In this document: positions 3,233 through 57,457 of the stretch, one piece after another | Numbering within the stretch: the first letter of the stretch is position 1 | Layout: the number at the start of each line of letters is the position of its first letter | Source: Amoebidium appalachense | Taxonomy: Eukaryota > Protista > Ichthyosporea | NCBI GenBank assembly: GCA_963693365.1 | Contig: CAVNZM010000001.1 | Coordinates: 9,378,907 to 9,442,906, forward strand | Direction: 5' to 3' | DNA length: 64,000 nt | The notes under the pieces: model-generated | Database searches by the model: none | What the model was told of the DNA's origin: nothing | Seen by the model: the letters and a program-made list of their open reading frames with translations, nothing else | Made by a program: the position numbers and the translations under genes

Positions 3233-6200
3233 TCAGTCCATGTCTCCCATACACTCCTCCACGTGCTTTTCGATGAGATACCATTGGGCGCTGAAGTTAC
3301 AAATCGGGCACTGGCGCATTTCTAAATGGTCGGCGCTTTCCCCAACGACATCATCACCTGATTCGCGAGTGGTGGTGGTGGTGGTGATGGGTGTGTGTGT
3401 GTGTGTGTGTGTGTGTGTGTGTGTGTGTGTGTGTGTGTGTGTGTGTGTGTGTGTGCGTTTTCGTGCGTGCGTGCATGCGTCTGGGTGTATGGGCGGGTGG
3501 GGTGGTGGTTGGGGGGGGGAAGGGGGGGGGGGGGGGAGGAAGGGGGAGATTTTAGTCGATCCAGGTAAACATATCAACATCGTTCGGCACGGTATTCTAA
3601 AATTCAGCTTGCATTTTCCAGTATGTTCTCGAAAGCACATCCGTTTGAGTATTGGTTGATAATATTTGATAAGTTCTGAATTCATGTACCCGCAAAGAAA
3701 AACAACAATTATCAGATTTCCGTGGAAGTCGTGAATGAAAAAGCAATGAACACGAAACCAAAACCCTTCCTAAAACAGTTTGTTGTGTGTCTTCCCCCCC
3801 CCCCCCCCCCCCCCCCCCCCCCCCCCCCCCATCCCCTCCCCTGCCCCCCACAACAACAACTTTTACAACATACCACCACTACAACCATAAGGAACAAACC
3901 ATATTCAGCAAGAGGAGCATAACGGAAATCGAGGGAGGGAGGAGGGCGGTTTGAATGCGTCATAAAGGGGGGGGGAAGAGGGAGGAGGATAGGGGAATGG
4001 CATATGGAATAATCTTCCAACATCCCGTCATGGGGGATGGACGGAAGAGGGAGCCGAATGTGTGGTGGTATGGGTTCTTGGGGAGGAGCGGGCCGGGGGG
4101 GGGGGGACGGGGGGCACGGGGGGTGGTGGTGGTGGTGGTGGTGGGGGGGGGGGGGGGGGGGGAGGGTGGAGGAAAGAGAGAGAGAAGAAAAGGCCTAGAG
4201 AGAGAGGGGGGAGGGAGGGAAGGAGGGAGAGAGGGAGGGAGGAAGGGAGAGACGGGGGGAGGGACGGAGGGAGAGACAGAGAAGGGAGGGAGGGAGGGAG
4301 GGAGGGAGGGAGGGAGGGAGGGAGGGAGGGGGTGAGACAGGAAATCAATAGGGGAGAGAAGGAAATAGCAGGCACGGGAGAAACATATGCATACCTTCAT
4401 TCTCACCTGCCACTGCTTGTTTCTTCCTTTGCGGGGGTGACTCCTTTTGTTGTCTTTTTCGTTTCCCTGCAACCCCACCAACAAAGCATGTGAGCAAACA
4501 CCGTTCAGCTGTGCAAGAAAAAGGGTTCCCCCCCCCCCCCCCCCCCCCCCCCCCCCCCCCCCCCCCCCCCCCCCCCCCCCACCATCCCCCCCCCCCCCCC
4601 CCCCCCCCCCCAAAACCAACACACACACACACACACACACACACACACACACAAAAAAAAAAGGAAAGAAGAGAGAGAGAGAGAGAGAAATGAAGGTCAA
4701 AAAGCCTCAAACCCCACAAACTTGCAGAGCGTTCGTCCTCCCCCCCCCCCCCCCCCCCCCCCCCCTCCCCCCCCCCCCCCCCCCCCCCCCCCCCCCCCCC
4801 CCTTTCCCGCACCCACCCACACACACACACACACCAACCCATTCACACCAGTATCAAAACACATACACAAACACCCATCCCCCCACACACTTGAACAAGC
4901 GCGCACACAACACACAAAGACAGTAGAGGACAAATTTCCGTTAGAAAGGCACAGTAACAAAGGGGGCAAACGAATAAGTGAGAAAGGACGTGCAGAAAGT
5001 AGAACCCTAAATATGCGGTTTTGCAAAAGCTGTATGCTGGCACAGACAGTAGACAGTCAAGGGAATGTGTGTGTGTGTGTGTGTGTGTGTGTGTGTGTGT
5101 GTGTGTGTGTGTGTGTGTGTGTGTGTGTGTGTGTGTGTGTGTGGGGGGGGGGGGGGGGGGGGGGGGGGGGGGGGGGGGGGCGGGAGGTGGGGACGACTAG
5201 AAAACCACTTTATCACTAAAATCAACATGGATTAACGACCCTTGTTCTATAACATATATATCTTATCCCCCCCGCCCCCCTCCCCCCCCCCCCCCCCTCC
5301 CCCCCCCCCAAATTCTCCCCCTCCAAAAAAAAAAAAAAAAAAAAAAAAAAAAAAGAAGAAGAAGAAGCAAGGATCTTACATTACCAAAATTTACCGAAGT
5401 AAATTTTTTTTTTTTTAAAAAAAAAATTAAACAATATTATAAAATACCTGAGCCCGGGGGTATCCACTCTTCGTCTGTTTCAGTCACGTATTCCCCCCCC
5501 CCCCCCCCCCCCCCCCCCCTTTTCCTCCTAATCTTGCCAAAAAAAGAATTTTATAGGTTAAAAATATTAAACAAAATAAAAAATACCTGATCCTGGGGGC
5601 ATCCACTCTTCATCCGTTTCTGCCACGTATTCCTCTTCCTCCTCCCGCCTGCCCCCCCTCTCCTCTTCCTCCTCCGTATCACCCCCGTATTCATCAGCAT
5701 CTTCACCCCCCTCCATTGTGGAATGCATTTCTGGGCTTTTCGCCGCGCTTGATTGGCTGGACGGTGTAGTCGGCGCGTTTTGATTGGTTGTTCGCGACGG
5801 TGTGTGCGTCATCCCTATTTGGTATTGCATTATTTAAGTGAAAGGGTTATTTTCGCTACCTTTCTTAGAGCAAGGAAAACACACAAGCCAACAGTTTTAC
5901 TCATAGACATAGAGCGGGTTGTGTGCTTGTGTATGTGTATATGTGCTGTGCATGTTTCAAAACCTGCATGTGTGTTGCATAGTAACACGTAATTACAAGT
6001 GTGTGTCGTGTGTGTGTGTGTGTGTGTGTGTGTGTGTGTGTGTGTGTGTGTGTGTGTGTGTGTGTGTGTGTGTGTGTGTGTGTGTGTGTGTGTGTGTGTG
6101 TGTGTGTGTGTGTGTGTGTGTGTGTGTGTGTGTGTGTGTGTGTGTGTGTGTGTGTGTGTGTGTGTGTGTGTGTGTGTGTGTGTGTGTGTGTGTGTGTGTG

Positions 6201-55500: not shown

Positions 55501-57457
55501 CACCAACGAGTTTTTCAACTGGCGGAAATATGATTATCTGCAGGTCCGAAACCCCCCCCCCCCCCCCCCGGCCCCATTCTCATTGTCTGTGCGCACCCCC
55601 CCCCCCCCCCCCCCCCCCCCCCCCAAAAGAAAAAAAAAAAAAAAACCGACTTCATAAGCACTGCTTGTTTGCCCCCCTCCCCTCTCCCCCCAACCCCAAC
55701 CCACCCCTAGCCCCCAATGTCGGCCCCACAGATAACGCTGCCTGAAGGAAAGGGAGCAAAAAAAAAAAAAAAAGGAAGAAGAAGAAGAAGGCCGGCAGCA
55801 TCGTGGTGGGGCCTCCCAAGGATTCAATCAGAGCTGATTTCTTTAAAACGCCTATTTTTTAACGTAGCGATTAAACGAGAATTTTACTATCTAGTTTAAA
55901 CTCTATCATGTGTATGTGTTACGCCCAGAATTCCCTCTATGATGTTTCAACAATGTAAGCCGCTGTAAGTCCCTTAAGCGCTAGTAATATCCAAATTGAT
56001 CAAAAACCCATGGAATAGAGATGTTTCATACAAGTACAATTCAAATTTTGCTGCACAGTAGATGTTTTTGTGCCATTCACAAACCAGCCGCCGGTGAGCC
56101 ACATTTCTTCGTAAAAAAAAACCTTCCAGTTGTTCATAGGGTAACAGATGGGTGAGAAAAGATTGTAATGAAAATGGCTAGTACAAAACCTGTAATATGC
56201 AACCAAAAAATTATAAGATTGATGCTATAGTTTTTTATGTTATATATCTGAATTTGTTGTTCTTTTTACGTTTCCTTCATTAATATTTTTGAGATTGAAC
56301 CTCTTGCATTTACTTCGTTAAAAACCTTCCGGTTTTTCATTGGCTAGATTTAGGTCCCGGAGAATGATGATGGCGACATCTAGCCCCCAATGTCGGCCCC
56401 ACCAATGATGCTGCAGGCAAAAAAAAAAAAAAAAAAAAAAAAAAAAGCAGCATCGCTGGTGGGGCCTCCCAAGGATTCTAATTGAAAAGTGCCGCAGGTT
56501 TTCATTGGCTGGCTTCGATTTCGCCATGCATTTTCCCGCCACATTCCAAAAATCTGATATTTAGCCAATGAAAACCTGCGACATTTCATGTAGCCAATGA
56601 CAACCTGCGGCATTTTGGACGATGTTTTGGCGTGAATCTTTGCTACCGGTGCTGGATTGGGATTTGGTTCTACTGTAGAGCAGAAAACGAATCGGCCAGG
56701 AGAAGAATAAAAAAAACCGTGTTTGATATCTATTTTTTTGCATGCGTGGTACGCATCTAACGCGTACTGCTCAACGTTGGGGATGGCTGGTTCGCGCCAA
56801 ATTTTGTGATATCACCTATCATTATTTAGCCTTATGCCTACGCATGACAAACAGGTTTATTAAAAATTTAATAATTGTTAAACATTTTTTAAGCAGTCTA
56901 TTTTTTAACGAAAAGCCCTCTAAATGAATCCTTGTGAGGCCCCGCCAAGGTGGCTCAAAAATCCGATAGCCTACATTGCGTAGACCATCTAATTACGTCA
57001 TTATGAACTGATGTAGTCTTCCGACGCCACCGCGGCGGGGCAAAAATTTATGGCTAGGCAACATCCCATTAGCCAATGAAAAACTGGATAGCTTTTCAAT
57101 TAGAATCCTTGTGAGGCCCCACCATGGGGGCAGGCAAATTCTATAGCCTACATTGCGTAGACCATCTAATTACGTCATTTCGATGTAGTCTTCCACCGCC
57201 GTGAGGGGGCCGAGATTTGGGGCTACCCCACCCCCCTCCCTCCTTTTCTCTCACAACCCCTCTCTATCCAGTATCTCACTGGGTTTTCCATTTTGTTAAT
57301 CACATTCAACATGCAAACACTGAAACATTCAAACCCTGCATCACAGGACCCCATCACGCATGAGTTCAAGAACACAAACAGCAAAGGCCTTCTACGCAAC
57401 TGGGTGACCCTCTTCACCCGCAGGGGGGTTAGGATTGCCCCTTCAAAGACTATCTGA
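40553..57457 (+). CDS. AKR1: Ankyrin-repeat DHHC palmitoyltransferase (AKR1/ZDHHC13/17 family), about 662 aa
   Basis: Exons 40553-40760, 41596-41775, 42246-42380, 43156-43241, 43963-44060, 44746-44835, 45333-45439, 46056-46132, 47269-47327, 48422-48549, 49655-49756, 50241-50336, 51510-51601, 52102-52178, 52822-52909, 53935-54002, 54644-54726, 55440-55543, 57347-57457; phase-consistent, 1989 nt. Ankyrin repeats (TALHLAV, SPLHLAA, GADVN, TALHWAA), TM helices, [54 protein letters not shown]. Start codon less certain. Confidence 0.92.
42520..42667 (+). mobile_element. Repeat family A, diverged copy
   Basis: GGGCCGAAACTCGGG..GTACTGTGGATGACTTGGCCCCCCCCTGAGGATGGACTCTGTTTATTATGCATAC...CTTCGTACT followed by poly-C; most similar to 21366-21512. 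Confidence 0.7.
48665..48748 (+). mobile_element. Repeat family A, truncated copy
   Basis: Reverse complement of about 13483-13566; ends GCATTCAAAC followed by poly-C. Confidence 0.85.
51164..51310 (+). mobile_element. Repeat family A copy
   Basis: CTTGGG-CCCTGAGGATGGGCTCTGCTTATGACGCATACTGTG...GCATTCAAAC followed by poly-C. Confidence 0.85.
53239..53500. repeat. Tandem duplication, unit about 132 bp
   Basis: GTGCTTGCGTG(T/C)GGTCGCTTTGTTGAGTGTGTGCG...GCGTGTAGTGT plus a T-tract, at 53239 and 53371. Confidence 0.8.
54280..54554. mobile_element. 275-bp near-perfect palindrome (foldback/MITE-like) with TTAA at both ends
   Basis: Arms of about 133 bp starting CTTAAACCAACCACCGCATCTCCC and ending GGGAGATGCGGTGGTTGGTTTAAG; about 4 mismatches by eye; loop of about 9 nt (GAAAGTGTG). 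Confidence 0.85.
55710..57223. mobile_element. Family-B-related MITE (outer element) hosting a nested 672-bp copy
   Basis: TA|GCCCCCAATGTCGGCCCC at 55708 and GGGGCCGAGATTTGGGGC|TA ending at 57225; shares subterminal blocks (GGTGGGGCCTCCCAAGGATTC; TAGCCTACATTGCGTAGACCATCTAATTACGTCATT) with family B but has a different interior. Confidence 0.75.
56383..57054. mobile_element. 672-bp MITE (family B), nested copy
   Basis: TA-flanked, same length as and colinear with 15880-16551. Confidence 0.85.

Follow-up and report, generated by a model that had tools for sequence, protein, structure and literature searches.

Poly-C tracts follow weak 5' splice sites in a window of the Amoebidium appalachense genome and are likely a helper signal for splicing

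Many introns in the 64,000-nucleotide (nt) stretch of Amoebidium appalachense DNA analysed here (contig CAVNZM010000001.1, positions 9,378,907 to 9,442,906; the window) begin with a degenerate donor followed by a long cytosine homopolymer, which raises the question of whether the homopolymer helps the donor to be recognised. A sequence-only reading of the window had proposed that sense-strand poly-C tracts assist donors lacking G at intron position +5 (+5G) by recruiting the U1 small nuclear ribonucleoprotein (snRNP). Four genes were modelled by coordinates, namely a SMARCAL1-like SNF2 helicase gene (SMARCAL1), a dihydroorotase gene (DHOase), an ankyrin-repeat DHHC palmitoyltransferase gene (DHHC) and a small membrane-anchor gene. 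The models contain 48 introns with every frame open; all introns start with GT and end with AG, and their lengths range from 348 to 1951 nt with a median of 766 nt. All 45 introns of the sequence-only reading were recovered, together with SMARCAL1 intron 1 and the two introns of the small gene. The results below refer to this one window, these four genes and these 48 introns, and a partial gene at the left end lies outside the counts.

A dense C tract, defined as at least 10 C in 12 nt of the sense strand with a start by +31, was found after 20 of the 23 donors without +5G and after 9 of the 25 donors with it (Fisher p = 4e-4). Permutation of this association within genes gave p = 1e-5, and p was at most 0.016 at all 20 threshold settings tried. 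Chance expectations taken from the interiors of the same introns were 4.6 of 23 and 3.4 of 25, and the +5G donors were themselves enriched in tracts (9 versus 3.4 expected, p = 0.002). For the 45 introns counted by hand in the sequence-only reading, which had reported tracts after 20 of 22 non-+5G donors and about 9 of 23 +5G donors, the dense rule returned 19/22 and 9/23 (p = 0.0018) and a second rule requiring at least 50% C returned 20/22 and 8/23 (p = 1.5e-4), in close agreement with the hand count. A sense-strand C tract was also confirmed after all 15 donors that it had named by coordinate, none was present among the 4 donors of the consensus forms GTGAGT, GTAAGT or GTAGGT, and the pattern flipped with gene strand as it had stated (13 of 15 non-+5G donors in minus-strand genes and 7 of 8 in plus-strand genes). 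The tracts, often 20-55 nt of near-pure C, start by +15 in 25 of 29 cases and by +31 in all. After non-+5G donors the mean C fraction was 0.75, and C-run occupancy was 0.52 at +7..+20 and 0.64 at +21..+40, compared with 0.10 mid-intron. Of 1201 interior GT dinucleotides without +5G, 8.7% preceded a tract, and the mirror tract occurred at 7 of 48 acceptors. Tract content was independent of intron length (rho -0.12), and among the best-anchored 26 introns the counts were 12/13 versus 4/13, with a rho of -0.69 against donor strength.

Absence of +5G turned out to be a proxy for total donor weakness. The strength of each donor was taken as its agreement, at positions -3..-1 and +3..+6, with a generic U1 consensus, G:U pairs earning half credit. 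C content at +7..+36 fell as the U1 match rose (rho -0.61, p = 5e-6, n = 48; rho -0.64 after exclusion of 10 donors that overlap the tract or lie in GT/GGGT repeats). The total match is thus a better predictor than +5G, which the sequence-only reading had treated as the key variable and which remains associated. The +5G donors were tract-enriched because some of them are weak at other positions: within this group rho was -0.39 (p = 0.052), or -0.63 (p = 0.007) without repeat or overlap donors, and tracts were rarer where the exon ended in AG (3 of 16 donors) than where it did not (6 of 9; p = 0.03). All three donors lacking both -1G and +5G carried a tract, and no compensation between -1G and +5G was seen among the donors. 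The exonic and intronic halves of the donor were uncorrelated (rho -0.03), and each predicted C content (t = -3.7 and -4.7); the independent exonic effect is important, since most of these bases are coding and would not be expected to follow the composition of the intron. When the score was split at 4.5/5, a cut-off picked after inspection of the table, tracts followed 26 of 32 weak donors (6.0 expected) and 3 of 16 strong donors (2.1 expected), the latter being the background rate. The rank correlation between tract and donor strength held within SMARCAL1 (p = 4e-4) and within DHHC (p = 0.037). Introns are C-skewed overall, with 146 C runs versus 73 G runs; the partial correlation of donor score with tract was nevertheless -0.55 (p = 5e-5) when intron-wide C/G skew was controlled, whereas that of skew with donor score was 0.03 when the tract was controlled. 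The dependence on donor strength therefore survives composition control within the window. What is directly observed is where the tracts lie, on which strand, how they depend on donor strength and that strong donors carry them at the background rate; the donor signal is an excess of C rather than an absence of G.

By its protein matches, the window reads as ichthyosporean DNA. A DHOase exon was 100% identical to the transcript-derived protein P0002, and the next-best matches were ichthyosporean as well, namely Ichthyophonus hoferi (73%), Sphaeroforma arctica (69%), and what we take from gene-id prefixes to be Creolimax (63%) and Chromosphaera (61%). Because the whole spliced DHOase model is identical to P0002, its seven introns are transcript-proven, and three of its boundaries also occur in spliced RNA contigs. 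Of four sequencing runs, none of them recorded as RNA, two (X1, X2) gave spliced contigs and two (X3, X4) matched G-rich stretches only. The RNA joint tables were dominated by homopolymer noise, and a strict second RNA alignment yielded a single exon piece, the SMARCAL1 exon 11920-11982; most SMARCAL1 joints and all DHHC joints therefore rest on frame or homology rather than on RNA. The SMARCAL1 frame is open from 23614 through to the stop and matches the protein P0050 with 48% identity over 561 aligned residues (residues 15-567 covered), gapless across the weak-donor joints of introns 8 and 9. An RNA contig connects 24268-24739 with 23132-23705 across SMARCAL1 intron 1, and the donors of introns 2 and 12 are supported by RNA contigs. 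The DHHC model is based on an open frame of 662 amino acids and on Pfam Ank and DHHC matches on three single exons, and its membrane-region exons are the least certain. In the small gene, an RNA loose end links 33393 to 34399 across intron 1 with the frame open, and intron 2 is supported by frame. Homologue searches with the SMARCAL1 N-terminal exon and with one DHHC exon as queries returned no match. SMARCAL1 intron 21 and DHHC intron 8 have two possible donors each, and either option has +5G and no tract. Candidate exons at 17642-17663 and ~53610-53675 were dropped, as the frame closes without them, and a stretch at ~42515 was rejected as an exon, being a repeat copy. A metagenome scan with P0002 gave 35 loci, with long unbroken matches of 33-48% identity that are apparently intronless. 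At 23651, in SMARCAL1 exon 2, the C run in RNA is one base longer than in the window, which is probably one base short there through an assembly slip. A homologue alignment puts the start of SMARCAL1 exon 11 15 nt earlier (12554-12590), with no AG there and an AC-repeat end; this too is probably an assembly slip, with the donor unaffected. Tract lengths are approximate, since the assembly has at least one homopolymer slip relative to RNA. The modelled genes and the tracts that illustrate the pattern are listed in Table 1.

Table 1. Genes, selected donor-proximal tracts and C-tailed repeat copies in the window (a slash marks the exon-intron boundary)
Feature	Position	Strand	Remarks
SMARCAL1-like SNF2 helicase gene	3233..24739	-	22 exons, 21 introns; 13 donor-proximal C tracts
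Dihydroorotase (DHOase) gene	25670..32340	-	8 exons, 7 introns; C tracts after 4/4 non-+5G donors and 0/3 +5G donors
Small membrane-anchor gene	32839..36691	+	2 introns; C tract solely after the weak donor of intron 2
Ankyrin-repeat DHHC palmitoyltransferase gene	40553..57457	+	19 exons, 18 introns; 11 donor-proximal C tracts
Partial gene, 3' end	1..1383	+	Donors 91 and 848 or 850, both without +5G; C tract after each
C tract, SMARCAL1 intron 2	23078..23120	-	After TTG/GTATAT; donor is an RNA contig edge
C tract, SMARCAL1 intron 6	17275..17296	-	After AAG/GTCTCT
C tract, SMARCAL1 intron 8	15342..15371	-	After GGA/GTAATG, without -1G and +5G
C tract, SMARCAL1 intron 9	14547..14601	-	After CTC/GTACTA, without -1G and +5G
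U-rich tract (80% U), SMARCAL1 intron 15	9913..9942	-	Replaces C after CAG/GTAGTA, non-+5G
C tract, DHOase intron 2	31596..31625	-	After ATG/GTATAG; transcript-proven
C tract, DHOase intron 3	29991..30032	-	After CAG/GTGAAA
C tract, DHOase intron 5	28416..28449	-	After AAG/GTATAT; adjoins a C-tailed repeat copy
C tract, DHOase intron 6	27420..27464	-	After GCG/GTATAT
C tract, DHHC intron 7	45447..45486	+	After TCG/GTATTG
C tract, DHHC intron 9	47335..47370	+	After ATT/GTACTT, without -1G and +5G
C tract, DHHC intron 10	48557..48598	+	After TCG/GTAAGA, +5G donor with weak exonic side
C tract, DHHC intron 14	52186..52234	+	After TTG/GTAATT
C-tailed repeat copies	21366-21519, 13485-13683, 28266-28414	-	
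C-tailed repeat copies	34891-34959, 42516-42666, 48665-48747, 51164-51309	+	

Judged from sequence, the poly-C tracts are likely a helper signal for splicing and not junk. We favour, with moderate confidence, the reading that the tract serves as a downstream intronic splicing enhancer in RNA, through which a C-binding protein helps U1. A predicted KH-domain protein of the PCBP/hnRNP K type would bind the C tract in nascent RNA and would then steady U1 snRNP on the poorly pairing donor. In a genome rich in C and G homopolymers, a C tract beside a donor would be retained if that donor depends on it, and a tract in place would let its donor decay; these two directions are indistinguishable from one genome. 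The statistics fit such a compensating enhancer, and the neutral explanations tested did not account for the pattern. The tracts share the properties of this enhancer class, in that they lie within ~30 nt of the donor, are enriched at weak donors and follow the transcribed strand, and they begin just beyond the U1 footprint, where Nam8/TIA-1- and Mer1-type enhancers sit. The U1-recruitment claim of the sequence-only reading is partly supported: the dependence on strength, the part played by the exonic half and the start just past the footprint stand in its favour, while action in RNA, the kind of protein and contact with U1 are what we infer. Its wording that the device is general in this lineage would be an extrapolation from the 48 introns of one window. 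An Rfam search of the window gave 0 matches, and hence none to a small nuclear RNA. A bolder reading, which we regard as doubtful, is that intron recognition has been rewired around poly-C, with a dedicated C-binding factor as a near-constitutive U1 partner and with a C-tailed retroelement that exploits the code, inserting in sense into such tracts and leaving it intact. Under the same rewiring, and stated equally tentatively, a degenerate donor together with a C homopolymer would mark out more than half of all introns.

Several results weigh against the enhancer reading. Taken gene by gene, the +5G test was significant only for DHOase (p = 0.029; SMARCAL1 0.08, DHHC 0.15). G tracts followed 0 of 23 non-+5G donors against 1.9 expected, which is not significant alone (P = 0.11); of the earlier statement that the tract is C and not G, it is the excess of C over interior chance that carries the signal. 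C runs also outnumbered G runs away from intron ends (109 versus 67, p = 0.002), and this C skew throughout the introns means that another strand-biased force exists. Cryptic donors before interior sense C tracts were not depleted, with a GT scoring at least 2.5 in 20 of 72 cases versus 9 of 50 for antisense tracts (p = 0.28); a tract is therefore insufficient to make a donor, and exon context must matter. The distance of the tract showed no significant relation to donor strength (rho 0.30, p = 0.11). Six of the 32 weak donors lack a dense tract, of which two are followed by U-rich sequence, one by 97% pyrimidine, two start GU repeats and one, the donor of the RNA-supported intron 1 of the small gene, has no C, U or GU tract directly downstream. 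Furthermore, rival mechanisms fit too, because 28 of 29 tracts are capable of forming a G-quadruplex (G4) on the template strand and the tracts raise predicted accessibility; a mechanism based on an unstructured spacer or on a template G4 predicts the same counts. The U-rich tracts or GU repeats at a few weak donors may be other routes to the same end.

Four donors read GTGTGT (44061, 46133, 54003, 13716), three of which begin long GU repeats, and two of these three are weak and without a C tract; GU repeats may be another helper at weak donors. SMARCAL1 intron 11 has a weak donor and a dense tract that is among the most distant (+30). A contig from an RNA run spans the acceptor of this intron unspliced (11955-12067) at a depth of 24 versus 41 spliced, which could be retention, pre-mRNA or DNA.

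An explanation that needs no dedicated protein is that the tract is an unstructured spacer keeping the weak donor single-stranded for U1. The predicted unpaired probability at -3..+8 fell from 0.52 with the real tract to 0.44 when interior sequence drawn at random took its place (Wilcoxon p = 0.002, 29 introns), no gain was seen at the 19 tract-less donors (0.44 versus 0.40, p = 0.37), and U-rich tracts replace C at three donors. However, the gain is small and is explained by composition alone, because shuffled downstream bases still give 0.50, and poly-A runs, which are likewise unstructured, were not enriched after donors; we consider this explanation unlikely. At the DNA level, poly-G on the template could fold into a G4, slow RNA polymerase II and gain time for U1, an idea to which we give a slim chance. 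Human template-strand G4 motifs are 3.66-fold enriched at the weakest 5' splice sites (10.1101/700575). The template G4 pattern was present in 28 of 29 tracts, a match that does not discriminate because any long C tract yields a G4-capable template, and interior tracts would stall the polymerase equally. Most tracts, moreover, begin at +7 to +15, where, given the geometry of the enzyme, a stalled polymerase would probably keep the donor inside the RNA channel. A neutral origin would let homopolymer-prone DNA, strand-biased repeat growth or raised mutation near tracts pair the tracts with degenerate donors. Simple repeats make up about 21% of the window. The C skew of the whole intron goes with the 5' tract (rho 0.53) and, weakly, with the donor score (rho -0.30), and the undepleted cryptic donors before interior tracts agree with such an origin. 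Nevertheless, controlling for the tract abolishes the effect of skew on donor score (partial r 0.03), the tract keeps its own effect, and exonic, mostly coding donor bases predict the tract independently. Of the 23 non-+5G donors, 17 have A or T at +5, so the weak +5 is not the tract creeping in, and C and G runs are balanced outside the modelled genes (28 versus 26). Neutral forces thus seem to us an unlikely source of the pattern as a whole.

Two further explanations start from particular sequences in the introns. Seven copies of a C-tailed repeat share a common 3' end, a 5' side cut short, a poly-C tail and mostly C-rich 5' flanks; all seven are intronic and in the sense of the host gene (p = 0.016). 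The repeat is likely the 3' end of a non-LTR (long terminal repeat) retroelement targeting C tracts. The donor tracts could therefore be imagined as scars of intron birth or of this mobile repeat, with young introns having both weak donors and tracts; four copies adjoin donor-proximal tracts, and Ichthyophonid ichthyosporeans gained many introns (PMC5560861). We regard such a scar as quite improbable: the donor tracts next to those four copies flank the repeat body on its 5' side and not at its tail, the spacers before donor tracts are unlike the repeat's end, no other family sequence is common to intron 5' ends, and the association persists without the four repeat-adjoining introns (18/21 versus 7/23, p = 3e-4). 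Lastly, the 5' C tract might pair with an acceptor-side G tract and bridge the intron, a mechanism known for AC/GT repeats in zebrafish introns (PMC4691745). C and G runs are both common in the window introns, yet a G run of at least 7 occurs in just 11 of 29 tract introns (2 of 29 in the last 100 nt) compared with 14 of 19 tract-less introns, and of six candidate introns, one has GT and AC repeats at its two ends. C:G bridging is largely refuted, and we give it almost no credence.

The longest C-tailed copy, possibly extending to ~22160, had very high contig depth, summed over copies elsewhere. The repeat had no Rfam match, the six open reading frames of its longest copy had no Pfam match, and a repeat-pattern scan of viral contigs gave 0 matches. 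A second dispersed repeat (15876-16554 and 56379-57057; 683 nt, 92% identity) contains internal sub-repeats, and its two copies are intronic in different genes. Just inside SMARCAL1 intron 20 there is a second copy, 85% identical, of the last part of exon 20 and its donor (5427-5492, 5567-5631). At the acceptor side, a U-rich tract is missing from the 48 introns, T making up 28% of -25..-4. A branch-point-like CTRAY occurs no further than 60 nt from the acceptor in 14/48 versus 5/48 for a control window, and AC repeats occur in the last 100 nt of 10/48. The frame of the partial gene at the left end is open with donor 848 or 850 alike. It ends in a four-cysteine motif, split by the intron after 91, which is presumably akin to a RanBP2-type zinc finger; a Pfam search of the single exon gave no match. 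DHOase and the small gene stand head to head with ~500 nt between them (32340-32839). A possible exon of a further gene at 59153-59268 (+), also outside the counts, has a preceding AG, an open hydrophobic frame and a weak GT followed by a C tract; a Pfam search of this candidate gave no match.

The pattern is real and statistically firm, and a function appears likely from the sequence. A literature search, with supplements and most subscription papers outside its scope, found no account of poly-C beside donors in ichthyosporeans, nor of its being a dominant signal in other organisms. The main text of a long-read ichthyosporean genome paper contains none of 'homopolymer', 'simple repeat' or 'low complexity' (PMC11244446). 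A survey of holozoan genomes describes extensive intron gain in the ichthyosporean clade and does not mention hnRNP or PCBP (PMC5560861), and an intron-signal survey across some 61 species has no 'C-rich' passage (PMC3033335). Donor-side helper signals vary by lineage, being U-rich in many and G-rich in mammals and birds, and it has been argued that genomes recruit them from the simple sequence that they produce in quantity. If the enhancer reading is true, a close unicellular relative of animals in which long poly-C serves most weak donors would add an independent example, with the opposite base. Part of the homopolymer DNA that assemblies mask would then gain a function, and gene prediction would be made easier in a genome with very degenerate donors.

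Known systems provide partial parallels. Like TIA-1/Nam8 sites, the tracts are pyrimidine stretches directly after the donor (PMC3082912, PMC3606033). They differ in being dominantly C, with at least 60% U at +7..+36 in 3 of 48 donors only. Zebrafish GT/AC introns carry complementary repeats at both ends, and the window introns do not follow that arrangement. Xiao et al. 2009 reportedly described G-run enhancers bound by hnRNP H/F at weak mammalian 5' splice sites. These resemble the tracts as a homopolymer-type motif just inside the intron, strand-biased and peaking at weak donors (10.1101/700575, PMC3606033); the base here is C, and a G tract stands at 0 of 23 non-+5G donors. At the weakest human donors, G4 motifs are 6.76-fold enriched on the sense strand, and among 11 species, with no unicellular holozoan included, strong G4 enrichment at weak donors was confined to mammals and birds (10.1101/700575). 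Mammalian G-rich elements have been argued to derive from bulk genome composition (PMC3606033). In vertebrates, C-rich intronic motifs can compensate for weak signals and are bound by hnRNP K and alphaCP/PCBP (PMC2481429, PMC4797308): they enhance splicing of human introns whose acceptors are weak (PMC2481429), a C-rich motif close to a 5' splice site in chicken is a site of hnRNP K action (as cited in PMC2481429), and alphaCP/PCBP promotes exons mainly via acceptor-side C tracts and U2 (PMC4797308). The vertebrate cases differ in working mostly at the acceptor via U2/U2AF with short CCC motifs that play a secondary part to G-rich ones; on the donor side, the chicken intron is the one example cited (PMC2481429, PMC4797308). 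In yeast, the KH domain of Mer1 binds AYACCCUY within 25 nt of weak donors, a CCC-to-GGG change kills activation, and a consensus donor frees introns from the need for Mer1 (PMC3082912). The Mer1/Nam8 system thus shares with the window a C-core element within ~25 nt of a non-consensus donor, where a KH protein aids U1 in yeast, and the yeast SPO22 donor GUAUAU is the commonest non-+5G hexamer here (3/23) (PMC3082912). Mer1, however, uses a fixed octamer in four meiotic genes, whereas long C runs follow the donors of 29 of 48 introns of ordinary genes here, and AYACCCUY occurs in the first 35 nt of 2 of 48 introns. The enhancer principle is therefore a known one; what sets the window apart is its lineage, the base and length of its tracts and the proportion of introns that carry them (29/48).

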